Assembly (NCBI GenBank): GCA_963833225.1
Contig: CAWHXD010000007.1
Coordinates: 256,001-320,000, forward strand
Direction: 5' to 3'
Source of the DNA: an uncultured Chloroflexia bacterium
GTDB taxonomy: Bacteria; Chloroflexota; Limnocylindria; Limnocylindrales; CSP1-4
DNA: 64,000 nucleotides
A program made the position numbers and the translations under genes. Below the pieces are notes generated by a model that saw nothing but the letters and a program-made list of their open reading frames with translations, did no database searches and had not been told where the DNA came from. This document shows, piece after piece, positions 561-30,052 of the stretch; the first letter of the stretch is position 1, and each line of letters opens with the position of its first letter.

Positions 561-1547
561 ATGCCCAGCCTCCCCAAGCCGCGACGACTCTCGACGCCGC
601 GCCGCCGGCCCGCCGCGGTGCCGGGTGCCGTGGTGGTCGTGCTCGGTGACCTCGTGGTGGACGTCGTGCTTGCCCCTGACCGGGACCTCGAGCGCGGGAC
701 GGACGTCACCGGGAAGGTCCAGCTCCGGCAGGGCGGCTCCGCGGCGTCCACCGCGCGCTGGCTGGGGCGCCTCGGAGCCCGGACATCGCTGATCTGCGCC
801 ATCGGGCGCGATGCCCCGGGCCGGGCGCTTGTCAGGGCCGTTGCCACGGACAAGGTGCAGGTCCGCGCGGTGCGCATCGCGGGTGCCCGGACCGGCCGGA
901 TCGGCGTGCTCGTGGAGCCGGGTGGCGGCCAGCGGTCATTCGTCACCGAGCGTGGCGCCGCGCTCCGGCTGCGGCCCGAAGATGTGCGGCCCCAGTGGCT
1001 CGCGGGTGCCGACGCCCTTCACCTGCCTGCCTACTCGCTCCTGGACCAGCCGCTCGGCGACGCGGGGCTGGCCGCGGCGAAGCTGGCCCACGCCGAGGGG
1101 GTCCTCGTCTCGGTTGACCTCTCCTCGTCGGGGCCGCTGCTCGCCCGCGGGCGGCAGGGCGCCCTCGCACTGATCCTCAACGCCGCCCCGGACCTGCTGT
1201 TCGCGACGCGGGACGAGACACGGGCCCTCGTCGGCGGCAAGCACGAGGAGCGGCTCCTGGACCTGGCGCCGATCGCCGTCGTCAAGCGTGGCCGGAAGGG
1301 GGCGACGGTCTTTGCCCGCGACGGCCACGCCATGCTGCGGTTCGAGGTCGCCACGACGCCGATCACGGTGGCCGATACGACGGGCGCCGGCGACGCGTTC
1401 AACGCGGGGTTCCTGGCCGGCTGGCTTGACGCCCGACGTCGCGGGTCCCCGCTTGCCGCGGCTCTCCAGCGCGGTGCCGTGCAGGGCAACCGGACGGCCC
1501 TGCGGCACCTGACCACGCCGCCCGGCGAGCTGGTGCTCGGGCGCTGA
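561..1547 (+). CDS. PfkB/ribokinase-family carbohydrate kinase (possibly pseudouridine kinase)
   Basis: GGSAA N-terminal motif and DTTGAGDAFNAGF signature; TATGCT 6 nt before ATG; psuG nearby. Confidence 0.85.
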   Translation: MPSLPKPRRLSTPRRRPAAVPGAVVVVLGDLVVDVVLAPDRDLERGTDVTGKVQLRQGGSAASTARWLGRLGARTSLICAIGRDAPGRALVRAVATDKVQVRAVRIAGARTGRIGVLVEPGGGQRSFVTERGAALRLRPEDVRPQWLAGADALHLPAYSLLDQPLGDAGLAAAKLAHAEGVLVSVDLSSSGPLLARGRQGALALILNAAPDLLFATRDETRALVGGKHEERLLDLAPIAVVKRGRKGATVFARDGHAMLRFEVATTPITVADTTGAGDAFNAGFLAGWLDARRRGSPLAAALQRGAVQGNRTALRHLTTPPGELVLGR

Positions 1548-1596
1548 GGCCGACCCGGCCGGTCCGCCGTGCCAGCGCCCGCCCCCAGGACCGGCC

Positions 1597-3669
1597 CTAC
1601 GCCCGGACGAAGCGGTCGAACCAGTCGAGCATCCGGGTCATCCGGTCGATCCGCCGGTCGATCCGGCCCGTCGCCTGGATCCCGTGGTACTCCTCCGGGT
1701 AGACCACGTATTCCACGGTTCGTTCCAGCCAGCGCAGCGCCGCGAAGAACTGCTCGTTGTCGGCCGGCGGACAGCGCTTGTCCGCCTCGGCCTGGAGCAT
1801 CAGCAGCGGCGTGTGGACATCGGCCACGTTGCGCAGCGGTGACTGCCGCCACAGCCGGTCGATGCCCTCGGGCGTGGTCGGATCGCCCATGTGCGAGGCG
1901 CGGCAGTACTCGGGACCCGTGTCACTGTGGGCCCAGGCGGAGACCTGGTTCGTGACCCCGTTCTCCGACACGGCCGCCTTGAACCGGTCCGACGTTCCGA
2001 CCAGCCAGTTGACCATGAACCCGCCGTACGAGAGGCCAAGGGCGCCGAGACGCCCGGGATCGGCGAGGCCCAACGAGACCACGTGGTCGAGCGCGGCGTG
2101 GACATCGTCGGCGTCGGGCCCGCCCCACTCGCCAAGCTGCGGCGTGATCCACTCGGCGCCATAGGACGCCGACCCGCGGATGTTGGGCAGGACCACGCGA
2201 TAGCCGCGCGCGCAGAGCAGGACCACCTCCATGCTGGGCGCCGGTGACCACGCACCGAGCGGCCCACCGTGGACATCGACCACCGTTGGCAGCGCCTCGT
2301 CGTTCGAGGCGCCGGCCGGGGAGGCGATCCACGTCTCCACCGGTCCGCCGGGTCCGGGCGCCTCCACGCACCGCATCGACGGCCAGGCAAGCCCGCCCAC
2401 CCACGCCGATCCGATCGTGGTGACCGGGCGCAGCTCGCCCGCGACGTCATCGACCACGCACAGCTCCGGTGGACGGCTCCCGATGCTGGCGGTGACGGTC
2501 GTCCGGTCCCCCCTGGCTGCCAGCGTGCGTGCCCACGAGTCGCCCTGCGCCAGGCGCACAGGGTCGCCCGCGGGTCCGCCCGTCGCGGGGTCCACCGGGA
2601 AGCGCCACGGGTGGGTGCGACCGCGATCCGTGACCAGGGTCACGACCCCACTCCCGTCGGCCGTCCAGAACGGCCCTAGGCGCTGCTCCGCCTGCCAGCC
2701 CGTGAGATCGCCGTCCGCCCAGTCGCCAACCGGCCGATCGAGGTCCGGCGCCAGGGTCACGGCCTCCGCGGAACCGTCGGCCGGCCCGACCACGACCGTC
2801 GGCGACACGTCGTCGAAATAGTCGGGGTCGTCCACCCCGACCGCGGCCAGCCAGCGGCCGTCGGGCGAGTAGGCGGGAAAGCGAACGGGACCCGCGAGCG
2901 CAAGGACCTCATTCGGCGCCGCGTACCCCTTGCCCCGCGGAGCCGTTGCCGGAACCTCGAAGATGGATCCCCGTGGATGGAGGTCGGCGTCGGCTCGCGG
3001 ATCCGTGACGAACGCGATCGCCCGTCCGTCCGGCCGCCAGGCGATGTCGGACACGCCGCCGGCCGCGTCGGTGAGGCGGCGCGGCTTCGCTCCGTCCGAC
3101 GCCTCGACGACGTGGAGCTGCGACCGCCGGTCGAGGTACCCCTCGTAGTCGTAGCGGTAGTCGAGGACCGTGATCCGGCGCGCCATCGGCTCATCGTCCT
3201 TGGGCGCCTTGCCGACGATGAAGCGCTGGGGATCGGCCTGGGCGATGAAGGCGATCCGGCGGCCGTCGGGCGACCAGGCGGGCTCCCCGCAGGACAGCTC
3301 GCCGAGCGCCGGCGCGATGGGCTCGCCCCCGGCCAGGTCCAGGATCCGGAGCGAGGTCGGCTCCTTGTCCTTGCCGGGCGTTCCACGCGTGTAGGCGACA
3401 CGCCGGCCATCTGGCGAGATGCGGGGCCACATGTCGCGAACCGTGCCCGTGGTCAGTCGCCGGGGCTCGGGCGCGGAGGCCCCGCCGGGGCGGCCCGTCG
3501 CCAGGGGCACGAGCCAGAGATGCGAGACATAGTGATCCCCGTCCACGACCCGGCGGCTGATCACGGCAAACGAGCCGTCAGGAGCAAGGTCATGCTCCTC
3601 GACGACCACCTGGCGGCGGAGGAGCTCGGGGGTGGGGACCTGGAGGGTGCGGCGTCGGTTCTGCGGCAT
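1597..3669 (-). CDS. S9 family peptidase (acylaminoacyl/prolyl oligopeptidase-like)
   Basis: SPDG beta-propeller repeats, VHGGP, GLSYGG nucleophile, D and H of triad (DKRC, EYHG). Confidence 0.92.
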   Translation of the reverse strand: MPQNRRRTLQVPTPELLRRQVVVEEHDLAPDGSFAVISRRVVDGDHYVSHLWLVPLATGRPGGASAPEPRRLTTGTVRDMWPRISPDGRRVAYTRGTPGKDKEPTSLRILDLAGGEPIAPALGELSCGEPAWSPDGRRIAFIAQADPQRFIVGKAPKDDEPMARRITVLDYRYDYEGYLDRRSQLHVVEASDGAKPRRLTDAAGGVSDIAWRPDGRAIAFVTDPRADADLHPRGSIFEVPATAPRGKGYAAPNEVLALAGPVRFPAYSPDGRWLAAVGVDDPDYFDDVSPTVVVGPADGSAEAVTLAPDLDRPVGDWADGDLTGWQAEQRLGPFWTADGSGVVTLVTDRGRTHPWRFPVDPATGGPAGDPVRLAQGDSWARTLAARGDRTTVTASIGSRPPELCVVDDVAGELRPVTTIGSAWVGGLAWPSMRCVEAPGPGGPVETWIASPAGASNDEALPTVVDVHGGPLGAWSPAPSMEVVLLCARGYRVVLPNIRGSASYGAEWITPQLGEWGGPDADDVHAALDHVVSLGLADPGRLGALGLSYGGFMVNWLVGTSDRFKAAVSENGVTNQVSAWAHSDTGPEYCRASHMGDPTTPEGIDRLWRQSPLRNVADVHTPLLMLQAEADKRCPPADNEQFFAALRWLERTVEYVVYPEEYHGIQATGRIDRRIDRMTRMLDWFDRFVRA

Positions 3670-3735
3670 GGTCGCAGCCTAGTCCGCCTGTCGTCCGGCC
3701 GCATGCGCCGTCCCGCGCAGCGTACCCTGACGGCC

Positions 3736-4668
3736 ATGATCCCGCCCGCCCGCCTGTCGATCGCGCCGGAGGTCGCCGACGCGCTCCGCGACGGCACCCC
3801 CGTCGTGGCGCTCGAATCCACGCTCATCAGCCACGGCCTGCCGTACCCGCAGAACGTCGAGGTCGCCACCGCCTCCGAGGCCGCGGTCCGGTCCTCCGGA
3901 GCCGTGCCCGCCACCGTGGCCCTCAACGCCGGACGGCTGCTGGTGGGGCTGGCGCCGGACGAGCTCGAGGCGCTCGCGACCGCGCCCACAGGCTCCGTTC
4001 GCAAGGTCTCGCGTCCAAACCTTGGCCTCGCGATCGCGTCTGGGACGTGGGGTGCGACCACCGTGGCCGCGACCATGATCGCGGCCGAGGCAGCGGGCAT
4101 CCGGGTCTTCGCCACCGGGGGCATCGGCGGCGTGCACCGCGGGGCCATCGACGGTGACGCACCGAGCCTCGACATCTCGGCCGATCTCGACGAGCTGGCC
4201 CGGACGCGGGTCGCCGTGGTGTGCGCGGGCCCCAAGGCGATCCTGGACGTCCCACGAACCCTGGAATACCTCGAGACCCGTGGTGTCCCGGTGTTCAGCC
4301 TCGGGATCGACGAGGTGCCCGGGTTCTACTCACGCCGCTCCGGGATCCCGGCGCCGGCCCACGTCCCCGACATCGCGGCCGCGGCCGCGGTCATCCGGGC
4401 CCATGAGGCGATGGGCCTCGCCTCCGGGCTGGTCATCTGCAACCCCGTGCCGGAGGCCGACGCGCTGCCGCTCGAGGTCGCCCGCGGGGCGATCGAACGC
4501 GCCATTCGCGATGCCGAGGCGGCCGGTGTCAGCGGTGCCGCGGTGACGCCCTGGCTCCTCGCCCGCGTTGCCGAGATCACCGGCGGCGCGTCCGTGAAGG
4601 CGAATATCAGCCTGATCGTGAACAACGCGCGCGTGGCCGGCGAGCTGGCGGGCGCGCTCGGGGGCTGA
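3736..4668 (+). CDS. psuG: Pseudouridine-5'-phosphate glycosidase
   Basis: VVALESTLISHGLPYPQN, TTVAATM, FATGGIGGVHRG, DISADL, KAILD, VTPWLL motifs. Confidence 0.95.
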   Translation: MIPPARLSIAPEVADALRDGTPVVALESTLISHGLPYPQNVEVATASEAAVRSSGAVPATVALNAGRLLVGLAPDELEALATAPTGSVRKVSRPNLGLAIASGTWGATTVAATMIAAEAAGIRVFATGGIGGVHRGAIDGDAPSLDISADLDELARTRVAVVCAGPKAILDVPRTLEYLETRGVPVFSLGIDEVPGFYSRRSGIPAPAHVPDIAAAAAVIRAHEAMGLASGLVICNPVPEADALPLEVARGAIERAIRDAEAAGVSGAAVTPWLLARVAEITGGASVKANISLIVNNARVAGELAGALGG

Positions 4669-4868
4669 CCCGGGAATCGGTCGCGCTTCCGTGGCCAGCG
4701 GTCACCGCTTCTGCCGCGAAGGGCGCAACGAGGATCCGGTTAGCCTTGTTCCGCACCGGGGCGGTCGTTACACTCGCGGCGACCGCGGTCATCCGGTCGA
4801 GCGTGCGTCAGGCCAGATGCCACGGCCTGCCCGATCAGAGACCGGAGCCGCAGCGAGGGAGCAGCACC

Positions 4869-5378
4869 ATGCGGATCTACGAGGGCAGCCCTCGACAGGA
4901 CTTCGAGGAGGTGTTCCGTTCGATCGGAGCCTTTCTCGACACCCGCGCGATGCGCGACATCCTGATCCTCGAGGTGCCCGACGGCTTCATCGTCCAGGGC
5001 CTCGTGGCCGCGGGTGCGTCCTCGTCGGCGTGGTCGGACACGATGGGCACGGTCAGCAAGGAGACCCTGTCGTTCCTTGACGAGGATGTCGCCAAGTTCA
5101 TGGAGGAGGCGGCCAAGCGCCGTGGCGCCGCCGAGGAGGCGGGCTCCGAGGCCGGCGTCCACGAGCGTGCCCTGCGCGTGATCGGCCACTGGATCGACGG
5201 GGAGCGGCCCAAGGACGTGTTCCTGTTCGAGCAGGAGGGGGCGTACGTCGTCCGGCTCAACATGGGCGGCCAGCAGGTGGCGCACCACAAGCTCGCGGAG
5301 TTCACGACCGAAGACGTCGACGGGCTCGTCTCGCAGGGGCCGGAATTGCGCGCCAAGCCGGCGCCGCCGGCAAGCTGA
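4869..5378 (+). CDS. Hypothetical protein with two internal repeats
   Basis: RBS GAGGGAG; repeats FEEVFRSIGAFLD..DILILEVPDGFIV and HERALRVIGHWID..DVFLFEQEGAYVV. Confidence 0.75.
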   Translation: MRIYEGSPRQDFEEVFRSIGAFLDTRAMRDILILEVPDGFIVQGLVAAGASSSAWSDTMGTVSKETLSFLDEDVAKFMEEAAKRRGAAEEAGSEAGVHERALRVIGHWIDGERPKDVFLFEQEGAYVVRLNMGGQQVAHHKLAEFTTEDVDGLVSQGPELRAKPAPPAS

Positions 5379-5485
5379 TCGATCGCGACGGGCCTGTCCA
5401 CGGTCGCCGGGTCCGTGACATCCCGGCCGATCCGGGGCACAATCGCCCCCGATAGGCATCGTGCCGTAACGAAGGAGGCCCAACC

Positions 5486-5641
5486 GTGAAGGCACTCAAG
5501 ACGGTTGCCGTCGCGCTCGGGGTCACCCTGGGCGCCCTGATCATCATCCCGCTGGTCGTGCTTGCCGGCCTGTTCGTGTGGCTCAAGCTCACCGAGGAGG
5601 ACGACGAGGAGGCGCTGGAGCTCGAGCAGGAAGGCGCCTGA
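5486..5641 (+). CDS. Small 51-aa single-pass membrane protein with acidic tail (absent from ORF track)
   Basis: AAGGAGG RBS; MKALKTVAVALGVTLGALIIIPLVVLAGLFVWLKLTEEDDEEALELEQEGA. Confidence 0.7.
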   Translation: MKALKTVAVALGVTLGALIIIPLVVLAGLFVWLKLTEEDDEEALELEQEGA

Positions 5642-5724
5642 TCGACACACCCGACCTCCGGAGTCCAGACCCGGGGAGCCCGCCCACCACAGGTTCGACG
5701 CCCGCCGGCAAGGCGGGCGTCTCC

Positions 5725-6699
5725 GTGTCCACGTCGCAGAGTGCCACGGATGCGCACGGCACCGCCCCGGAGCGTCGGGTCGCGGAGCTGCTGGTCCTCG
5801 TCACCGTGGCGATCTGGTCAGCCAACTTCGTGGTCGTCAAGGCCGCCGTCGACGCCATCGGACCCCTGACGTTCACGGCCGCCCGCTTCACCGTCGCCGC
5901 CATCACGCTGTTCCTGCTGGTCCGCTGGCGGCTGGGTGCGGTGCGCCCGCCCGCCCGGAGCGCGCTGACGCTGATCGGCCTCGGGATGCTGGGCTTCGGC
6001 GGCTACCAGGTCCTGTGGACGGTCGGGCTCACGCAGATCACGGCCGGCGACTCCGCGCTGATCATTGCCGCGTCGCCGGTCCTGACGGCGCTGCTGGCGG
6101 GAGCCGTCGGGATGGACCGCCTGACCCCACCCAAGCTGGTGGGGGCGCTGGTCGCATTCACCGGCGTGGCCGTGGTGGTGGTCGCCGGTCACGAGCTCTC
6201 GCTCGGCGCGTCGCTCGTCGGCGATGGCCTCACGCTGGGGGCGGCCGTGCTGTGGGCGATCTACACGGTCTCCGGGACCCGCATGCTGCGCAGCGTCGAC
6301 CCCATCCAGGCGACCGCGTGGGCCGTGCTCGGCGGGACACTGATCCTGCTTCCCTTCGGCGTCGCCGAGGTCGCGACATCGCCGGCGCCCTCGATCTCGC
6401 CGCCGGTCATCCTTGCGGTCCTCTACGCGGGCGCGCTCGCGGCCGGCGTCGCCAACGTGTTCGTGTTCAACGCGATCCGCCTGGTGGGCCCCACTCGTGT
6501 CACCGTCAACCAGCTGCTGGTGCCCGCCGGCGCGGTCGTGCTCGGGGCGATCTTCCTGTCCGAGCCCGTGGGCATCGCCCAGGTCCTGGGCGGCGCCGTG
6601 ATCGTGCTGGGCGTGTGGCTCACGCGGCGTCCGGCGGTGCTGCCGGAGCCCGTGCGCTCGAGGATCGCTTCGCGCGCCGGGGCTACGCCTCGAACATGA
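5725..6699 (+). CDS. DMT/EamA family transporter (start uncertain)
   Basis: About 10 TM helices, WSANF..K motif, two EamA repeats. Confidence 0.88.
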   Translation: MSTSQSATDAHGTAPERRVAELLVLVTVAIWSANFVVVKAAVDAIGPLTFTAARFTVAAITLFLLVRWRLGAVRPPARSALTLIGLGMLGFGGYQVLWTVGLTQITAGDSALIIAASPVLTALLAGAVGMDRLTPPKLVGALVAFTGVAVVVVAGHELSLGASLVGDGLTLGAAVLWAIYTVSGTRMLRSVDPIQATAWAVLGGTLILLPFGVAEVATSPAPSISPPVILAVLYAGALAAGVANVFVFNAIRLVGPTRVTVNQLLVPAGAVVLGAIFLSEPVGIAQVLGGAVIVLGVWLTRRPAVLPEPVRSRIASRAGATPRT

Positions 6700-6765
6700 G
6701 CGTGCCCATCATCGATGGCCTGACACCAGCCGACGGTCCACGTCGACCCCGGATCGCAACCCTAA

Positions 6766-8532
<1,767 letters not shown>

Positions 8533-21082: not shown

Positions 21083-21095
21083 AGGGGGCACGTCC
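21083..21095 (+). repeat. attL core AGGGGGCACGTCC
   Basis: Identical to 29917-29929; flanked by host arm CCCGTGCGG (21073-81) and element arm TGCGGGT (21104-10). Confidence 0.85.
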
Positions 21096-21110
21096 ACATA
21101 TAATGCGGGT

Positions 21111-22355
21111 ATGAGTACCGCCGTCGCCTACCTTCGCCGGAGCCGGGTGGACACCCGCCGCCCTGGCACCGTCTCCCACGCCGAGCAGAAGCCGCCGTCA
21201 CCGCTCTGGCCGCCCAGCATGGCGATCACGATCTAGATGTTCTCGAGGACTGGGGGCGATCGGGCCGAGACGAGAAGCTCGCCAAGCGCGACGCGTTCGC
21301 CGATCTCCGGGCCCGCGTCAAGCGTGGCGACGTGACCGCCGTCTACGCCTACGACGTGTCGCGGCTCGGGCGCTCCGTCGTGACCCTCCACCAGCTGATG
21401 ACCGAGTGCAAGGCCGCCGGCATCCCCATCCGCTGCGCGTCGGGCTACTCCCCCGACATCAGCACCGCCGAGGGGCGGCTGGTGTTCGCCAACCTCGCCG
21501 CGATGTTCCAGTACCTCGCCGAGAGCGTGCAGGAGCGGGCCGCGCGGCGCGTCGAGGAGCGGCGCGAGAAGGGGGAGCTCATGGGCCCCGCGCCCTTCGG
21601 CTACCGGCTCGTGGACGGCAAGCATGTCCCCAACCCGGCCGAGGACCTCGCCACCGTGATCGAAACGTGGCGCGCGTCCGAGAGTGTCGCGGAGGCGTGC
21701 CGGCGCCTGAAGATGCCGGGGTGCGGACCCGGTCAGGCGTCCAGTGGCTACCATCGACGCTGTACGCGATCCTCGAGCACGAGGGGCTGCGCGTCCGCAC
21801 CCTGCAACGTGGACGGCCCGTGAAACGCACCTACCGGTTCTCGCGGCTCCTGCGATGCCCGCACGACGACTCCGCGCTCGTGGGCAACGGCAAGAACGGG
21901 CTCGTGCAGTACGAGTGTCGCGCGTCGCGCCTGACCGGCGATCACCCGTACCCACGCAGCATCTCCGAGCGGCTGATCCTGCCGTGGGCGGAGACTGAAG
22001 TGGACAGGCTGCGGCTGCCGGTGGACACGGTACAGACCGCGGTGGACAACGCCGAGCGCCGGGCCATCCTCTCCGGGCGCTTGGACCGCGCCAACGAGCT
22101 CTACATCGCCGGGAGCATCCCCAAGGACCGATACGAGCGGGAGGCCGCCGCGGTGGCCGCGGAGCTCGACGGCTTGGACGCCGAGGACGAGATGATCGCG
22201 GTCCCGCCGATCGGGCCGCACGATTGGGACACTTGGGCGCCCGCGGACCTCAACCGGACACTCCGCGCCCTCTGGTCCCGCGTCGAGCTCGGGGCCGATA
22301 TGCGGCCTGTCCGTGCGGAGTGGCGCAGCCGGCCCTGTGGAGCCCGGCGTCGTGA
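21111..22355 (+). CDS. Large serine recombinase (integrase); 3-4 apparent frameshifts
   Basis: AVAYLRRS (catalytic Ser), YDVSRLGR, PFGY, recombinase domain, Zn-ribbon (LLRCPHD..YEC), coiled coil; assembled from frames of ORFs 20931, 21332 and 21406. Confidence 0.88.
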
Positions 22356-22675
22356 TCCTGCGACCGCTCGCCGTCGTGGGTTCGGCTGCCCGGTGCCCCG
22401 AGCCCACCTGTGGAGCCTGGATTGGCCGCGTCCGACGCGACCGGCGCGTCACCGAGCGTCACGGGCAGGAACCAACGCCCTATGTCGCCGAGACCTTGAT
22501 CCTCTCGACGCTCTGGCGGCCCGTCAACGGCGCTTGGCGCCTCGGCCGCCACCATGGGATGGACGAGCGGACGGTTACCTTCAGGCCGCTACCGATCGTG
22601 TGTCCCAAGTGCCACCACAAGGCCGCCGCACCGCCGCTGGTTTCGCGATTGCAGCCGAGGCCGCACACGGCGTAG
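22352..22675 (+). CDS. Small Cys-rich (CPEPTC...CPKC) protein, candidate recombination directionality factor
   Basis: GTGA overlap with inferred recombinase stop; two Cys pairs. Confidence 0.5.
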   Translation: MILRPLAVVGSAARCPEPTCGAWIGRVRRDRRVTERHGQEPTPYVAETLILSTLWRPVNGAWRLGRHHGMDERTVTFRPLPIVCPKCHHKAAAPPLVSRLQPRPHTA

Positions 22676-22948: not shown

Positions 22949-23167
22949 GGGCCGCCGTCATGCGAGCAACCGGCAGCCCTCCGTCCAAGCCTACCCCCGA
23001 CGAGTGGGAGCGGGCTAATCACGCCGCCTACATGGTCGGCGTCATCCTCCGATACCGGCACCCGGCTGGGTCGTCGCGGAGCGGTTCCGCGAACTTGAGG
23101 CCGCGGGAGAGGCCCACAACGACGCATGGTTCGGGACCGCGACGATGGTCCGCGGCTGGGACCAGAC

Positions 23168-24142
23168 GTGAGCCTCACCGAGCCCGAGTGGGTCCGGGAT
23201 GGGCCTACGATCATCCCTGAGGCCGTCACACGGCCCCGGCTGGCCGTCACCGGCTCGCACCGCCTCTCGGTCCTGCGCTGGCAGGAGCTGATGACCTCGC
23301 CGCCCGAGCCGCCGCCGGTCCTCCGGGCCGGTATCCCGGAGGTGGGCGTCACTGTCCTTGCCGGGAGCCCGAAGGTGGGTAAGACACTCTGGAGCTCCCA
23401 GACGGCGCTGGAGATCCGCAAGCCCGTCCTGCTCGTCATCGAGGAGGGCAGCATGAGCGGGATCACCTACCGGCTGGCCAGACAGGCCGCCGCCCTCGAC
23501 ATTGCCGCGCCACCCATCGCGGTTCTGCACCGTCAGCGGATCCGCCTGGACAACCGGAGCAGCGTGGACGCCCTCCGGGCCATCGTGGCGGCCGAGCGGC
23601 CCGCGCTCGTGGTCCTGGACCCGCTCAACCGGCTCCACGGGGCCGATGAGAACCGGCCCACGCAGATGACCCCGGTCATGGACGCCATGGCCGGCATCGC
23701 CTACGACTACGGGGTCGCGGTCCTGGCGATCCACCACCTGTCCAAGCCCTCCGCCGAGCGGCGCGGGGACATCTGGGACCGCTACCGCGGCGCGTCCTCG
23801 ATCCGCTCCGGCACGGACGCCAACCTCGCGCTCGACGGGTCCGGAGACCGCGTGCGGCTGAGGGGTGAATTCCGGGATGCAGAGCCGCTGTCCGAGTACC
23901 TCGAGCTCGACCGCAACACGCTGCTATTCGGGCCGGGCGACGCCCCGGAGGCGCCGACCAAGGTGGACGCCCTCGCGCTGCGCCTGTTCGTCCAGGAGCG
24001 GACGCAGGTCACGGCGGCACAGGTCATGGCCGAGTACGCCGTGTCGAAGATGACCGCCCTTCGAGCCCTTCGAGCCCTCGGCTGTGACGAGTTCCCCGGT
24101 GTCCGCGGGACCCTGACGTTCACCCTCGGAGGTGGCTCGTGA
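23168..24142 (+). CDS. AAA_25 / RepA-like SF4 helicase with possible C-terminal HTH
   Basis: Walker A GSPKVGKT, Walker B LVVLDP, IHHLSK, RGASS. Confidence 0.88.
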   Translation: MSLTEPEWVRDGPTIIPEAVTRPRLAVTGSHRLSVLRWQELMTSPPEPPPVLRAGIPEVGVTVLAGSPKVGKTLWSSQTALEIRKPVLLVIEEGSMSGITYRLARQAAALDIAAPPIAVLHRQRIRLDNRSSVDALRAIVAAERPALVVLDPLNRLHGADENRPTQMTPVMDAMAGIAYDYGVAVLAIHHLSKPSAERRGDIWDRYRGASSIRSGTDANLALDGSGDRVRLRGEFRDAEPLSEYLELDRNTLLFGPGDAPEAPTKVDALALRLFVQERTQVTAAQVMAEYAVSKMTALRALRALGCDEFPGVRGTLTFTLGGGS

Positions 24143-24421: not shown

Positions 24422-24730
24422 ATGACCCCACCCATCCGCCCGCCCTCGCACCTGTCCAAGCCGTCCAAGGCGCTTTACATCGATGTCATGGGCAGCTACC
24501 TGCTCGAGCCCCACCACGTGGCCCTGCTCGTCAAGGCGCTGGAGGCCCGCGACCGTGCCGACCAGGCACGCGCCGAGATTGGCCGCGGACCACTCATGGT
24601 CACCTCCCGGCTCGGCGAACAGAAGCCCCACCCGCTGCTCACCGTCGAGCGGGACGCCCGCGCCCAGTTCGGCACGCTGATGAAGCAACTCGGCCTGGAC
24701 ATCGACGGCCCGCCGTCCAACCGGAGATAG
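24422..24730 (+). CDS. Phage terminase small subunit, P27 family
   Basis: PPSHLS...EARDRADQAR...G..KPHP....ERDAR..F..L.KQLGL pattern; GAGG RBS. Confidence 0.85.
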   Translation: MTPPIRPPSHLSKPSKALYIDVMGSYLLEPHHVALLVKALEARDRADQARAEIGRGPLMVTSRLGEQKPHPLLTVERDARAQFGTLMKQLGLDIDGPPSNRR

Positions 24731-25337: not shown

Positions 25338-26709
25338 ATGGCCGACCCGGCCGCCTATCTGCTGGCGATCTCGGCGCCCCTTGGAGACACCGTGACCCCG
25401 ACCAACTTCGACTACACCGCCGAGCAGCTTCGTGCGCTCGATCATGCCATCGAGGGCGCGCGTACCGTCGTCCGGCTCGATGAGATGCGAGACGACGGCA
25501 AGGAGTTGACCTTCAACCAGTCGACCGACCGCGCCGAAGCATCCGGGCGTGGAACGACGCGGCCGACATCGTGCCCAGCCTCGCCCGGTGGGAGAGCATC
25601 ACTACCGACAGCGAGGCCTTCACCCGCTCCCTGGCCACCCTCCGCATGCACCTGCAAATGGGCAAGGGCGCAGCCCTCAGGGCCGAGATGCGTGCCAACG
25701 GCGCGGCCTACCTATTCGATGGAACGCTGGACCGCCCTGGCAGCGGCAATCCCGAAGCCATCACGATGAACGACCAGATCCGCGAGCTCTTGCAGTCCGG
25801 CGAGCGGCAGCACGACTTCGAGTACCTCGAGACCGACGCCATCCGCGAAATCCGCCGTCCTTCGCCGCCGGCGAGCAGAGGGCCATTGCCAACTTCTCGG
25901 ACGCCTCATCGCTGCATGTCAACGACTTCCGGCGACAGGTGGCGATGTACGCCCGCACGGCCAGTCCGTGGCTCGGACTGGCAACCGTCGTGACCTCCGA
26001 CGCGGGCCGGCCTCTGATCGTGCCCAAGCTCACGGGTGACGGCACCGTCTACACCCCGGGTGAGGGGACTGCCGTGTCCGAGAGCTCGGCCGTGCTGGAC
26101 TCCGTCACCGTGACCCCGACCGGGTTCAAGGCGTTGACGTACATCAGCCGTGAGAGCTGGGACGATGAGGAGGTGGACCTCGGCCGCCTGCTTGCCGCCT
26201 CGCACGCGCGGGCCATCGGCCTGGCGTTCGGCTCGACCGCGACCACGGCCGTCCTGGCTGGGATCAGAACGGCGGCACCGCGTCCGGCCTCGGTGGCGAC
26301 GGTACGGCCGTCGTGCCGTTCCTGGATACGAGGACTTGATCGACCTCCAGATGGGTCGAGCAGCCCCGTACCGCGAGGGCGGTGCCTACGTGATGGCCAA
26401 CGGCGCCATCACCAAGGTCAAGAAGTTCAAGGACGGACAGGGGTCCTACCTCTGGCCGACCGGCGCCCTGCCCATCGGTGGCATGGCGTATGAGGACCCG
26501 AACCTGGCGCTCCCGCCTCGGCCACCAAGAGTGTGTGCTTCGGGGATTGGGGCGCCGCCCTGATCATCAAGGCCACGCCGATCCGGGTCGAGGTGTCGCG
26601 GGACTTCCTGTTCAACACCGACCAGGTGGCCATCAAGACCGTCCAGCGCATCGCCCTCGCGGTGCAGGACCCGGCCGCTGCCGCGTACCTCGTGAGCGCC
26701 GATACGTAG
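25338..26709 (+). CDS. HK97-fold major capsid protein; about 4 apparent frameshifts
   Basis: PLIVPKL...GEGTAVSES...ISRE..DD..VDL...A.AIG; KFKDGQGSYLW; FGDW...VEVSRDFLFNTDQVAIKTVQR. Confidence 0.82.
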
Positions 26710-26945
26710 ATCCCCCGGACCGCCAGTACCCCTCCGGCCTGTCCACCTCAATCGCCCGCACGGGTTCCGCGTCGTCGCTCCACCTCGAAGGCGCGGCGCT
26801 CTGGCAGCAGCTTCGGGTCCGGCCGGAGCGTGCGGGCTAGGCCGTCGCTGACCGGCGGCGCAACCCCCCGTGGGGAACGCAGGACCTTCGAACGAGGTAA
26901 AGTCACGTACGGTCATGACAACGATGACGAACGACCAACCCGACA

Positions 26946-27770
26946 ATGCGTGATCGGGACCGCGACAAAGTCGCGCTCCGGGGCTCCATCGTTGACTTCG
27001 GCGATCCGCCGGTTATCGAAGTGGCCCTGTCGACCGAGATCCGTCGTTTACCGCACATGAGCCTGGTCCGCATCGTGGACGCATGGCACGAGCTGTATCA
27101 GGATCGCTTCCCGGAGGTTCAGGAACAGGCTCGCTACGCGCCCCCGCCGCTAAACGCGGAGCGCGGGCAGAGGATTTGCATGATGTCCCAACTTCCCACG
27201 CCAAGGCTGTGGTTCCTCAATCAGGCTCGAACCGACCTCATTCAGCTCCAGAACGACTGGTTTGGGCGCAACTGGCGCAAGGTTGAGGGCGCCGAGGAGT
27301 ATCCACGATACGGCGTCCTCCGCGAGGCGTTCGCCCACGACCTTGGGCTACTGCGGGACTTCACCGAGCGCAATGCGCTGGGATCTCTTGTGCCCACTAC
27401 CTGTGAGATCACGTACATCAACCACATCGAACTGGCACCAGACTTGGGTGTTGAACAGGTCCTCGGCGTGCTATCGCGGGATGGTGGAGGCTTCCTCCCC
27501 AAGATGGAGGCAGGTAGCCTGTCGGCTCGCTTCGCAATTACGGACGGCGAACACGCGCGAGGTACGCTTGCCGTCAACGCCTCGACCGCCACCCGGGCTG
27601 GCGACAATGCCAGCATTCTCGCGTTGCAGGTGACGGCTCGAGGGAACGCCACCACAGGCGATGTTGCTGGCGTGCTGCGATTTTTGGATCTCGGTCACGA
27701 ATGGGTTGTGCGTGCATTTGCGGAGTTGACGACCGAGCAGATGCACCAGCGCTGGGGGAGGACGCAATGA
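26946..27770 (+). CDS. TIGR04255-like protein
   Basis: FGDPPVIEVAL, RLWFLN...LIQLQND...NWRK...YPRY, CEITYINHI, HEWVVRAFAELTT...W pattern. Confidence 0.8.
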   Translation: MRDRDRDKVALRGSIVDFGDPPVIEVALSTEIRRLPHMSLVRIVDAWHELYQDRFPEVQEQARYAPPPLNAERGQRICMMSQLPTPRLWFLNQARTDLIQLQNDWFGRNWRKVEGAEEYPRYGVLREAFAHDLGLLRDFTERNALGSLVPTTCEITYINHIELAPDLGVEQVLGVLSRDGGGFLPKMEAGSLSARFAITDGEHARGTLAVNASTATRAGDNASILALQVTARGNATTGDVAGVLRFLDLGHEWVVRAFAELTTEQMHQRWGRTQ

Positions 27771-28284
27771 CGGCTCTGCTGCCAGAGACACGGTACCTAT
27801 CGGACCACCTGGTGAATGGCCAGTTCGAGGACTTTGCCGCCACGGGGGCCGCAACGACTGGGAGTCCGGCGTCTTTCACCTATCGCCTGGGGACAGCAGA
27901 TCTTGCTCCTTACATCGCACGCCAACGAGCTGACGAGTTCGTGTCGCGCGCGATCGAGCGACTGGAGTTGATGCGCCCGAACTGGGACGGAGACAACGGG
28001 CGGGCGATCTCGCCTCGAGCCCTTGCATACGCGGCCGGGCTGGTTCCCGATCTTGCTGCCCAGGGGGTGATGATCCCAAGCCTCGTTCCGGTGTCGGATG
28101 GCGGGATCTCGATTGAGTGGCACCGCGGGGGCCGCCAAAGCTGACCCTCTACGTCCCTCCGCGGTTCCCGGACGAGGACGCCGTCGCCTACTACCTCGAC
28201 GAGCGCACTGGCAACGAGTGGGAGGAAGCGCTGCCAGCCAACGAGTCGCGCGTTGAGGCGCACTTGGCGCAGTTCCTGGAGTAG
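27767..28284 (+). CDS. Conserved hypothetical protein (NWDG...P..DGGISIEW); probable frameshift near 28138
   Basis: GGAGG RBS, ATGA coupling; second frame continues LTLYVPP...HLAQFLE*. Confidence 0.7.
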
Positions 28285-28343
28285 CCCGATTTGGAAACGT
28301 CGACGCTGACTGGCAACGCTTCCGTGAGCCAGGGGACCGAGGT

Positions 28344-28754
28344 TTGACTGAGGCGCGGGTAGAGGCTGATGCCATCCTTCTGCGCAAGATCACTCCCGAT
28401 TGGGTGGTGCCCGACAACGAAGGTGGGTTTCGTGTGTCGAGTGCGGCGTACAGAGGCAATCGGACTGCCTCGAATTTGAGGGCGTTCTCGGTGTTCGTCG
28501 AGGCCCGGCTGACAGCGTCCGGGGCTGACGCCTCCGTACTCTTGGACGCTGATCAAGGCCTCTGGAGCGTCGTGAGCATCGACATCGGGACCGTGCGCGA
28601 AGTCGACCTTGAAGCGTGGTACCGCCCCGAAGGGGTGGACCCCATCCTAATTGAAGCCCACGCAGAGGTTGAAGGATCCATCAGCACGAAGAAGGCGTCG
28701 ACACTGGCTCGCAAGTCGCGACAGGTGATTTGGCGAGGGTCGTCGTCAGCGTGA
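28344..28754 (+). CDS. Putative ADP-ribosyltransferase-fold toxin-like protein
   Basis: LLRKI.P.W...RVSSAAY...FSVF...V.I..G.VR...AHAEV.G pattern; fold assignment is inference. Confidence 0.55.
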   Translation: MTEARVEADAILLRKITPDWVVPDNEGGFRVSSAAYRGNRTASNLRAFSVFVEARLTASGADASVLLDADQGLWSVVSIDIGTVREVDLEAWYRPEGVDPILIEAHAEVEGSISTKKASTLARKSRQVIWRGSSSA

Positions 28755-28806
28755 GTGCTGGGTGCCATATCCCGCCCGCTTGCCAGTTCGCGATTGTCCT
28801 CCGGGC

Positions 28807-29055
28807 CTACGAGGGCGTTCCACCCTCGCGGATCAGCCGAAGGCACCGAGCCAGTTCCCGGATGACCCCCAGCTCGGTCGGGGCAATGGCCGTCCACTCC
28901 TGCGACCGAGCGCCCGCCTGAGCCCACTCTCGCGGATCGAAAGCGTACTGCTCCCACACATTCCGCCCCTCGTCGTAGGACGGCCGGCCCACGAACCAGC
29001 CCGGAGGCTTCGCTTCGTAGAGCTCGCTCCAGGCGGCCTCTAGGTCGGTGGGCAT
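28807..29055 (-). CDS. Hypothetical protein (82 aa), leaderless
   Basis: TACCAT 7 nt upstream of ATG; protein-like, Trp-rich composition. Confidence 0.6.
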   Translation of the reverse strand: MPTDLEAAWSELYEAKPPGWFVGRPSYDEGRNVWEQYAFDPREWAQAGARSQEWTAIAPTELGVIRELARCLRLIREGGTPS

Positions 29056-29100
29056 GGGGCCGATGGTACGGCTATGGCGGCCTTGCGGATCAGTGGTCTG

Positions 29101-29772
29101 CTACTCGCCTGTCCTTTGGGCCATCGAGACCGCGAGCGCGAGGACCGCGACGACTGCACCTGCCACCAGTATCCACAGTCCATACCCCACCGAGGCGCGG
29201 GTGCTCTCACTGCTGGCATCTATGAGGCGGTTCGACATATTGACTAGGTCGTACGCGGACAGCGCGACGAGCACCAGGGCGCCTAGCAGTGCCAGCGGAC
29301 GGCGACGGCGGAAGCCGGTCGCCAACGGAAACGCAAGAACGGCAACCAGCACCGCAAGCCAAAGAGTCAGGACGCCGTCGCCGTCCGTGCCGGCGATAGA
29401 GAAACTGCCAAGACCGCTCTGCGCGCTGGCCCACGGCAGGACACTGCCGACTGCAGCCACAACCGCAGCACCAGCAGCCACATAGCCAAGTTGCGTCGAG
29501 GCTTGGCGAGCGAGCGTGGCGGCTACCGGATCGACCGGGACGGTCCGTATGCGGCCCCAGCTCAGGATCGCGTCCCCACCCAGCCTGTCGAGGACGGCTT
29601 CGCCAATGTTGTCGAGCGGCACCCGAATTTCGTCGCCACTCTTTGTGGACCGGATGATGACCACGCCCGGCTCGAGACGCAGCACCTCGCCACGAGTGCC
29701 GGTCGCTGGTGTCGGAACCTTGTACTTGATGCGAACACGTTGACCCGTCCGTAACTCCGGAAGGCCTGTCAT
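29101..29772 (-). CDS. Membrane protein: N-terminal SH3/KOW-like beta domain + 4 TM helices
   Basis: AAGGAG RBS; LRTGQRVRI...RGEVL; four hydrophobic segments (LPW, GYGLW). Confidence 0.7.
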   Translation of the reverse strand: MTGLPELRTGQRVRIKYKVPTPATGTRGEVLRLEPGVVIIRSTKSGDEIRVPLDNIGEAVLDRLGGDAILSWGRIRTVPVDPVAATLARQASTQLGYVAAGAAVVAAVGSVLPWASAQSGLGSFSIAGTDGDGVLTLWLAVLVAVLAFPLATGFRRRRPLALLGALVLVALSAYDLVNMSNRLIDASSESTRASVGYGLWILVAGAVVAVLALAVSMAQRTGE

Positions 29773-29916
29773 CCCATGCTCCTTTGACACCTCGGTCTTC
29801 GCGACCGGCTCGACGGGTGGTTGCCTGTGAGGCCAGCCTACGCGGATCGCGGCGATGCCGAAGCGTTCGGGCGGGGTCTCCTTCCATGCGCCCGATGCGT
29901 GACCCGCAAAGTTGAC

Positions 29917-29929
29917 AGGGGGCACGTCC
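29917..29929 (+). repeat. attR core AGGGGGCACGTCC
   Basis: Identical to 21083-21095; element arm ACCCGCA (29902-08), host arm CCGCACGGG (29932-40). Confidence 0.85.
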
Positions 29930-30052
29930 TTCCGCACGGGTGTCCGGTTCAAACCCTATCCGCCGCCACTTATCTGCCACTTACGCGGAGGGTGGTACTG
30001 GGCGCTCCCGCGGGAGTCAGGCTAGGATCGGCCCCCGACACCGAGGAGCCGA

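Follow-up and report, generated by a model that had tools for sequence, protein, structure and literature searches.

A TIGR04255-headed three-gene cassette with a candidate ADP-ribosyltransferase-fold toxin, distantly related to PDC-M32, in a probably decaying phage-satellite-like island

What kind of system do three small genes encode when they sit together as apparent cargo in a mobile island and none of them matches a Pfam family? The question is raised by positions 26946-28754 of a stretch of 64,000 nt from contig CAWHXD010000007.1 (assembly GCA_963833225.1, an uncultured Chloroflexia bacterium), hereafter the window, whose positions are used for all coordinates. An earlier reading made from the letters alone (the sequence-only reading) had described the locus as a TIGR04255 gene, a gene with an NWDG motif and a gene for a small ADP-ribosyltransferase (ART)-like protein, and had proposed a new defence or tripartite toxin-antitoxin (TA) system with TIGR04255 in the role that SecB plays in TAC systems. 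We consider it reasonably probable that the cassette is a tripartite TA-like module of the PDC-M32 kind carried as cargo by a satellite island, and that the copy in the window is most likely a decaying relic.

Three plus-strand open reading frames (ORFs) run in the same direction, gene 1 at 26946-27770 (274 aa), gene 2 from 27767 onward and gene 3 at 28344-28754 (136 aa), and the ATGA at 27767-27770 forms the overlap of genes 1 and 2, just as had been described at first reading. The three-gene layout stands, but gene 2 is not one intact ORF; a frameshift, treated below, had escaped notice. The excess of A/T at third codon positions was likewise real: the G+C content at third positions (GC3) is 0.72 in gene 1, 0.71 in the first part of gene 2 and 0.71 in gene 3, versus 0.89-0.95 in the other island genes and 0.81-0.92 in host genes, the genome as a whole having 71% G+C. 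Both motifs reported earlier, LLRKI..SSAAY..FSV..AHAEVEG for gene 3 and NWDG..P..DGGISIEW for gene 2, are present in the translations. Comparison with PHROGs gave no match for any of the three genes, and a promoter/terminator scan of 26600-29200 returned 0 sites.

Gene 3 is the candidate toxin of the cassette. A word-based homologue search with its product returned 4 relatives, and an exhaustive profile search of 1.84 billion representatives recovered 103 at E<=1e-3, almost all with lengths of 120-150 aa. In the alignment of 92 relatives (A2, from which the giant repetitive proteins P0006, P0010, P0020 and P0059 as well as fragments were left out), R14, S49 and H106 are invariant and L12, R30, F36, R85 and G111 nearly invariant; all three invariants are present in the window protein. 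R14 lies in the strand 11-16 and S49 in the strand 46-52, and H106 opens the strand 106-111. The AlphaFold2 model based on the 92 sequences had a mean predicted local distance difference test score (pLDDT) of 94 and a predicted template modelling score (pTM) of 0.88. Comparison of this model with 48,161 PDB representatives by an exhaustive structure aligner revealed that 49 of the best 50 matches listed belong, judged by entry titles, to the ART superfamily, led by KptA (9ld3, Z 7.8, root-mean-square deviation (rmsd) 3.2, 93 residues aligned) and AvrPphF ORF2 (1s21, Z 7.7, rmsd 2.8, 96 aligned), with Tpt1, Tse2, Scabin, TreX, VPA0770, diphtheria toxin, DarT, pierisin, pertussis toxin S1, ParT and RES/MbcT following in that order. 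In a second structural comparison with 30 rows, rows 1-23 all belonged to the ART superfamily (Z 7.9 to 3.1), after which Z fell to 2.2 for unrelated chains. The model and these matches support the ART-like character proposed for gene 3; because no Z reaches 8, we regard the evidence for this fold as good but short of certainty. The gene 3 profile was detected in 23 of the 401 genomes of our sample of the phylum, representing 22 of 217 genera. A tblastn search with gene 3 proteins gave no match in plasmids or phages, and Foldseek found no match at E<=0.001 for the gene 3 model in the viral library BFVD.

PADLOC connected genes 2 and 3 with a named candidate system. Residues 59-121 of gene 2 matched positions 258-320 of the 375 positions of PDC-M32A (E 2.4e-6), and gene 3 matched PDC-M32B weakly over profile positions 3-114 of 123 (E 1.5e-3, 17 bits). 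Within the gene 3 family, 30 of the 92 members matched PDC-M32B at E<=0.01, the best with E 2.4e-6. The relation to PDC-M32A does not extend over its full length: intact orthologues of gene 2 match positions ~260-357 only and leave the N-terminal 250 positions without counterpart, and the N-terminal parts of gene 2 proteins vary between loci. A word-based search with gene 2 returned only gene 2 itself, Pfam had no family for the 33 neighbour proteins of the related loci, and the Atlas neighbours of the gene 2 protein from locus L029 were unnamed clusters, some of them viral. The sequence-only reading had expected that PADLOC would give no match and that the system would be new. Both expectations failed: weak matches to PDC-M32A and PDC-M32B were obtained for genes 2 and 3, and complete novelty is lost because the pair is a distant relative of PDC-M32.

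The association of the two genes recurs widely. Regions of 10 kb around the 20 best places of the gene 3 family in the 401-genome sample were retrieved and, together with the window, made up a set of 21 loci. The gene directly upstream of the gene 3 homologue encodes the PDC-M32A C-terminal domain in 18 of the 21 (the window and 16 others by PADLOC, and L047 by our own profile at the same place; L038 was not scanned), and no match to that domain was seen in the upstream gene of L032 and L041. Locus L048 encodes a full-length PDC-M32A (E 2.7e-128), and its next gene was detected by the gene 3 profile.

Complex prediction was carried out on the intact pair of L029, with the whole toxin (alignment A8) and residues 80-204 of its partner (alignment A7). 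The predicted complex reached an ipSAE of 0.85 (0.84, 0.85 and 0.85 in separate runs), and the best control 0.00; 58 of 80 solved complexes attain 0.85, as do 2 of 110 mismatched pairs, figures that are only rough for predictions with own alignments. The partner had a pLDDT of 88, and at least 97% of the contacts were common to the runs. As the contacts on the toxin side (L029 numbering) include the invariant R35 and S52 as well as residue 20, which lies beside the invariant R19, the C-terminal domain of gene 2 is predicted to cover the conserved pocket of gene 3. Adjacent, co-oriented genes whose products form a complex are the mark of type II TA pairs, and the conserved adjacency and the predicted binding support, computationally, the proposal that genes 2 and 3 behave as an antitoxin-toxin pair.

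Gene 1 was correctly recognised as TIGR04255. Its product scored 41.4 bits against the NCBIfam model (cut-off 30; E 1.5e-10), residues 20-271 aligning to positions 4-252 of 252; the assignment was confirmed on the genome, and the Atlas feature neighbours were TIGR04255 clusters (0.97). The AlphaFold2 model (29 sequences; pLDDT 85.6, pTM 0.85) contains two repeats with a sheet packed by a long helix. Foldseek returned TATA-binding proteins (TBPs) as best matches (E 5.2e-4 to 2e-3, probability 0.98-0.99, TM by query only 0.24-0.30), followed by AdoMetDC, McsB/arginine kinases and RepDE, and the exhaustive aligner returned phosphagen-kinase C-domains (Z 8.6 and 8.5), McsB (7.8), and the LsoA TBP-like domain and TBP (6.3). 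These comparisons point to a duplicated TBP-like/helix-grip fold for TIGR04255. No SecB chain was found among the best 50 matches listed in either fold search, and with a TBP-like model the SecB role assigned to gene 1 at first reading is not borne out; the protein may instead be a ligand- or nucleic-acid-binding accessory protein.

TIGR04255 is sporadically distributed, as had been stated: it occurs in 33 of the 401 phylum genomes, at 37 places, and in 0 of 14 control genomes. Neither this family nor that of gene 3 was found in the three other same-genus genomes of the sample. TIGR04255 lies directly upstream of the gene 2-3 pair at 7 of the 21 loci (the window, L029, L030, L031, L033, L039 and L047), and its recurrence as the first gene of such cassettes bears on the neighbourhood conservation that the sequence-only reading had named as a check, and supports that reading. 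When loci were collected from the side of gene 1, the gene 1 profile recognised the family in 28 of the 30 returned (L050 belongs to G038, an unpublished genome); gene 1 is followed within -110 to +60 nt by a co-oriented ORF in 25 of the 28, and 24 have a third gene as well. Six of these loci (L053, L058, L059, L067, L073 and L076) carry a gene with the PDC-M32A C-domain together with an ART-like gene, and L078 and L079 gave weak ART-like matches. Seven carry a different family, X, to which gene 2 showed no relation in hhalign, and six of the seven also family Y, two of whose six members match Pfam HEPN (best E 1.9e-5, 25.2 bits, cut-off 22); the remaining loci form smaller groups. On the TIGR04255 tree the cassette types cluster, with 9 changes versus a shuffled mean of 17.9 and a value as low in 0 of 200 shuffles, a count which is inflated by kinship, since kin share labels, and which indicates clustering, not co-evolution. 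The window protein falls on this tree in a divergent, well-supported clade with those of L029 and L030.

Several arrangements were observed besides these. In L056, L057, L063, L066, L069, L071 and L077, TIGR04255 is followed by an unnamed family of 150-260 aa and then by a protein of ~125-158 aa (HEPN in 2 of 6). In L062 (contig C134 of G027) it is followed by an ORF of 200 aa and then by an HmaC-like AAA+ ATPase/DUF499 gene (PADLOC HmaC, E 8.8e-40), which places TIGR04255 beside a component of a known defence system. In L040 and L043, and also in L044, L046 and L037, the gene 2-3 pair is preceded by proteins of 220-250 aa without family match; those of L040 and L043 are 53% identical, and the first position of the cassette is variable.

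A bolder generalisation of these observations is possible, although we hold it only tentatively. TIGR04255 might be the common sensor or adaptor of widespread, undescribed modular three-gene abortive-infection or TA systems, in which a TBP-like protein, possibly reading a nucleic-acid cue of the phage, would control interchangeable inhibitor-toxin pairs, including an R-S-H clade of ART proteins (the relatives of PDC-M32B) and HEPN toxins. It would then be an analogue of SecB in function, structurally unrelated to it, and would be spread by satellites.

How the cassette relates to systems already described can be judged from its parts. The nearest is PDC-M32. The relevant part of Payne et al. 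(10.1101/2024.01.29.577857) presents the PDC systems of PADLOC as 145 untested candidates, with genes embedded in BREX, DISARM and type I restriction-modification systems; the M series in their names presumably denotes multi-gene candidates. In the 8.4 million papers searched, PDC-M32 appeared only once, as a PADLOC label on Sinorhizobium prophages (PMC12429752), and the name TIGR04255 was not found. Window gene 2 has the C-terminal domain of PDC-M32A (~255-372 of 375), gene 3 is distantly related to PDC-M32B, the A-like gene comes before the B-like gene in both, and the bona fide PDC-M32 locus L048 is recognised by the profile of the gene 3 family. In contrast to PDC-M32A, window gene 2 lacks the N-terminal part of 250 residues and has a short, unrelated N-terminus in its place, and a TIGR04255 gene precedes the pair, whereas canonical PDC-M32 consists of two genes. 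On sequence comparison, the cassette is best described as a distant, TA-like three-gene variant of this named but untested candidate.

With CmdTAC and other TAC systems, as characterised in the sections concerned of PMC11618068 and 10.1101/2024.02.24.581848, the cassette would share three co-transcribed genes for an ART-type toxin, an antitoxin and an accessory protein, and a putative connection with defence. The difference lies in the third component, which in TAC systems is a SecB-like chaperone and in the window is TIGR04255, TBP-like and encoded first, a comparison made by description, not by sequence. DarTG, ParST, MbcTA/Xre-RES, Tse2-Tsi2 and VPA0770-VPA0769 resemble genes 2 and 3 in combining a small ART-fold toxin with an adjacent protein antitoxin (here predicted), and all of them are among the structural neighbours of gene 3 (Z 3.1-5.8); gene 3 differs in lacking sequence similarity to them and in its conserved R, S and H, and its antitoxin domain lies outside Pfam. 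For the TIGR04255 fold a parallel exists in RNase LS: according to the passages of PMC3710099 that treat these domains, the HEPN toxins RnlA and LsoA carry fused TBP-like domains, and RNase HIII binds RNA-DNA hybrids through its TBP-like domain. The TBP-like domain of LsoA is near TIGR04255 in structure (5hy3, Z 6.3, 73 residues aligned), and some TIGR04255 cassettes end in a HEPN-like gene. However, the RnlA domains are fused and those considered here are separate genes, the window toxin is ART-like, and the likeness is one of fold only and modest.

The window copy of gene 2 is interrupted. Its frame 0 (27767-28144, plus strand) encodes the variable N-terminus and the first 60% of the PDC-M32A C-terminal domain, as judged by PADLOC and the orthologue alignment, and ends in a premature stop at 28144, directly after ...DGGISIEWHRGG (EWHRGG). 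The remainder of the protein (KLTLYVPPRFPDEDAVAYYLDERTGNEWEE...AQFLE; PPKLTLYVPP...AQFLE) is read from another frame, that of the ORF 28117-28284, in which the second part (28137-28284, plus strand; KLTLYVPP...AQFLE) is colinear with the C-termini of the orthologues and has a GC3 of 0.875. Because the intact orthologues of L029, L030 and L031 each consist of one ORF that is colinear across both pieces, comparison with them indicates a one-base frame change in window gene 2, at or beside the G5 run around 28128-28136 within CGCGGGGGCCGCC (28125-28136, plus strand), a site across which the orthologues keep a single frame. In a search of its own genome with the gene 2 profile, the window copy covers profile positions 64-137 of 186 only. 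Since 7 of the 30 partner-side contact residues of the predicted complex (153, 155, 157, 171, 173, 180 and 182) lie beyond the point of the frame change, truncation would remove part of the interface, and with gene 2 frameshifted the window copy of the cassette is probably defective. Programmed -1 frameshifting was considered for gene 2 and rejected, given that the three closest orthologues are single open frames and that the site is not a canonical slippery heptamer.

Alternatively, the frameshift might be an assembly or sequencing error at a homopolymer and the cassette intact and active in the living strain, an explanation that we consider somewhat unlikely yet give appreciable weight. The break does fall at or beside the G5 run, gene 3 retains every invariant residue, and a lone intact toxin gene is hard to square with viability; the assembly, with 20 contigs, 86% completeness and a divergent flank copy on contig C12, may moreover be mixed or metagenomic. 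What speaks for real decay is the state of the rest of the island, whose integrase and capsid genes each change frame at least twice and are thus spread over at least three reading frames. In the same assembly rpoB (1186 aa) and rpoC (1526 aa), together 8.1 kb, are open, and the window too has long uninterrupted host ORFs, among them the ComEC frame of 1015 codons, so that sequence errors would need to be confined to the island. With integrase and capsid genes frameshifted while rpoB and rpoC are open, the island looks pseudogenised, and the simplest reading is that it is decaying and that the break in gene 2 is part of that decay.

The island itself is an insertion of 8.8 kb that adjoins comEA. 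A 13-bp direct repeat at 21083-21095 and 29917-29929, att-like at its left copy, is the longest string common to both junctions. Junction comparison with the same-genus genomes G407, G405, G404 and G301 revealed empty sites, in which the flanks of ~21096 and 29917 are adjacent, and in the empty site of G407 the repeat string is single-copy. From left to right the island encodes a large serine recombinase (the integrase; 21111-22400, end approximate, plus strand), a pseudogene in at least three frames with phrog_95 matches in two and an N-terminal MSTAVAYLRRSRVD piece in the third, which ends at 21236; an AAA_25 protein resembling primase/helicase replication proteins (23126-24142, plus strand; Pfam AAA_25 E 1.3e-21 and PHROG primase/helicase families); a small terminase subunit (24422-24730, plus strand; Pfam Terminase_4 E 1.1e-6 and phrog_83); an HK97-type major capsid gene (25549-26709, plus strand; PHROG major head protein), a pseudogene with Pfam Phage_capsid profile positions 7-113, 148-192 and 225-278 in three different ORFs; the cassette; and two minus-strand ORFs. 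Integrase, replication, packaging and capsid genes between att repeats, short of a full virion set, are what is expected of phage satellites, and the sequence features thus suggest a layout like that of a phage satellite in which the cassette takes the cargo position, in agreement with the sequence-only reading. A perfect TATAAT box is located at 21099-21104, just within the left repeat and before the integrase start at 21111. The minus-strand ORFs, at 28807-29055 and 29101-29952, lie between the cassette and the right border; the latter (283 aa, GC3 0.73) has a hydrophobic C-terminal half and weak SH3_Rv0428c and Rv2732c-like matches below the cut-offs. Contig C12 of the window genome (G000) carries at ~1400-7800 a second comEC/comEA flank and right flank, 67-81% identical and without island, and because of this divergent island-free copy the assembly, with a contamination estimate of 3%, is suggested to hold DNA of a second related strain.

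Taken as a working TA-like module of the PDC-M32 kind, the intact cassette could function as follows. Gene 3 would be an NAD-using ART-fold toxin whose target, as with Tpt1/KptA and DarT, is probably a phosphate or base of nucleic acids; gene 2 would be its cognate inhibitor, keeping the toxin inactive with its C-terminal domain placed over the R/S pocket; and gene 1 would be a sensor or regulator, possibly nucleic-acid-binding and not a chaperone of the SecB type, deciding when the inhibitor releases the toxin. As an accessory first gene, TIGR04255 would stand before different two-gene modules whose third genes are ART-like or HEPN-like, and such modules may have an anti-phage effect.

A number of points weigh against this picture. 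As to the fold of gene 3, Foldseek against the PDB gave no match at E<=0.001 (top 1s21, E 0.095), Z values of 7-8 are typical best values even for models without a clear relative, and a PDB sequence search with the family profiles of genes 3 and 2 yielded nothing significant. Classical ART catalytic triads are of the H-Y-E or R-S-E type, and the gene 3 family has neither, its third invariant being a histidine; because of this lack we only infer catalysis and NAD use. The Arg, Ser and His residues for which mutants had been proposed correspond to the invariants R14, S49 and H106, but the ExE-like E108/E110 of the window protein are not conserved in the family. None of the three proteins has a Pfam family, PADLOC matched the window proteins only weakly (E 2.4e-6 and 1.5e-3) and, on PDC-M32A, only over positions 258-320 of 375, and PDC-M32 is itself an untested candidate. 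The ORF calls in the related loci are mechanical and the genomes GC-rich. TIGR04255 is lacking at 14 of the 21 gene 3 loci, where unrelated first genes of 220-250 aa or none are found, and hhalign detected no relation between TIGR04255 and those other first genes. Finally, a toxin gene that is intact while its antitoxin gene is broken should harm the cell, and no second gene-2-like gene was found in the window genome, of which the assembly is 86% complete. The combination of an intact gene 3 with a broken gene 2 implies that gene 3 is non-toxic or unexpressed, that the truncated gene 2 is functional, or that the assembly is in error.

The frequent absence of TIGR04255 also lends itself to a different interpretation, namely that this protein is a frequent neighbour only, for instance through a shared mobile backbone, and that genes 2 and 3 are an ordinary two-gene TA module. 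Canonical PDC-M32, represented by L048, indeed has two genes, hhalign found no relation between TIGR04255 and the N-terminus of PDC-M32A (probability 0.1), and no fused TIGR04255 was found among longer proteins, which is weak evidence. We nevertheless judge a bystander role improbable. In the window, as in most of the related loci, the stop codon of one gene overlaps or adjoins the start codon of the next. The linkage is found again in distant families of the phylum, where the TIGR04255 proteins are 12-17% identical, and the clustering of cassette types on the TIGR04255 tree, even if inflated by kinship, points the same way.

The structural matches of gene 3 raise the further question of whether it is a toxin at all. 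It could be a nucleic-acid-end modifying or repair enzyme of the Tpt1/KptA kind, with gene 2 as a partner that regulates it or delivers its substrate. Its best structural matches are the NAD lobes of Tpt1/KptA (Z 7.8-7.9, rmsd 2.9-3.2, 92-93 residues aligned), complexes with ADP-ribosylated DNA are among the matches to such lobes (Z 6.4-7.9), and arginines and a histidine are conserved in it. For the handling of phosphates Tpt1 relies on an Arg-His-Arg-Arg set, and by analogy the Arg/His-rich invariants of gene 3 hint at a phosphate-directed nucleic-acid target. Gene 3 is, however, the ART lobe only: its 136 aa align to residues ~85-180 of the Tpt1 chain, the N-terminal nucleic-acid-binding lobe is lacking, identity is 9% and no sequence relation is detectable. 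Its genomic context is that of a conflict system, its distribution sporadic and island-borne, and a partner predicted to sit over the pocket, the relation to PDC-M32 and the parallel cassettes of HEPN type fit conflict systems better, so that we regard a repair function as slightly more improbable still than a bystander role for gene 1.

That the cassette serves competition between bacteria, as a polymorphic toxin-immunity module in which gene 3 is sent into rival cells and gene 2 confers immunity, is highly improbable, for although the L031 cassette directly follows a truncated Rhs core domain and the Rhs and type VI secretion system toxins TreX, TreTu, Tse2 and Tne2 are among the structural neighbours of gene 3, all 92 aligned members are stand-alone proteins (~136 aa) that carry no delivery domain, the toxin gene comes after the inhibitor gene, the Rhs piece of L031 has no usual end and looks interrupted, and Pfam and PHROG scans revealed no secretion genes flanking the window copy. 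In L031 (1-3200, genome G261) the cassette is in frame with the truncated Rhs-associated core domain and a PIN-like gene lies ~400 nt downstream; this copy seems to have inserted into a site rich in toxin genes.

We therefore retain the TA-like module of the PDC-M32 kind as our reading of the locus, at the strength stated at the outset. As the window copy is probably a relic, its value is that of a pointer to a family and not of a working system, and intact orthologous cassettes are now identified. It links TIGR04255 with the families of genes 2 and 3, all outside Pfam. PDC-M32 gains a mechanistic reading, in which an ART-fold toxin would have its pocket covered by the C-terminal domain of the A protein, as the models predict. 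TIGR04255 gains a predicted fold, a duplicated TBP-like one, and a recurrent role as the first gene of cassettes; the most interesting result is its place at the head of modular cassettes whose last gene is ART-like or HEPN-like. If the proposed reading is true, the cassettes would enrich the repertoire of bacterial immune and TA systems with a new clade of ART toxins, a new antitoxin domain and a third component of a new kind.

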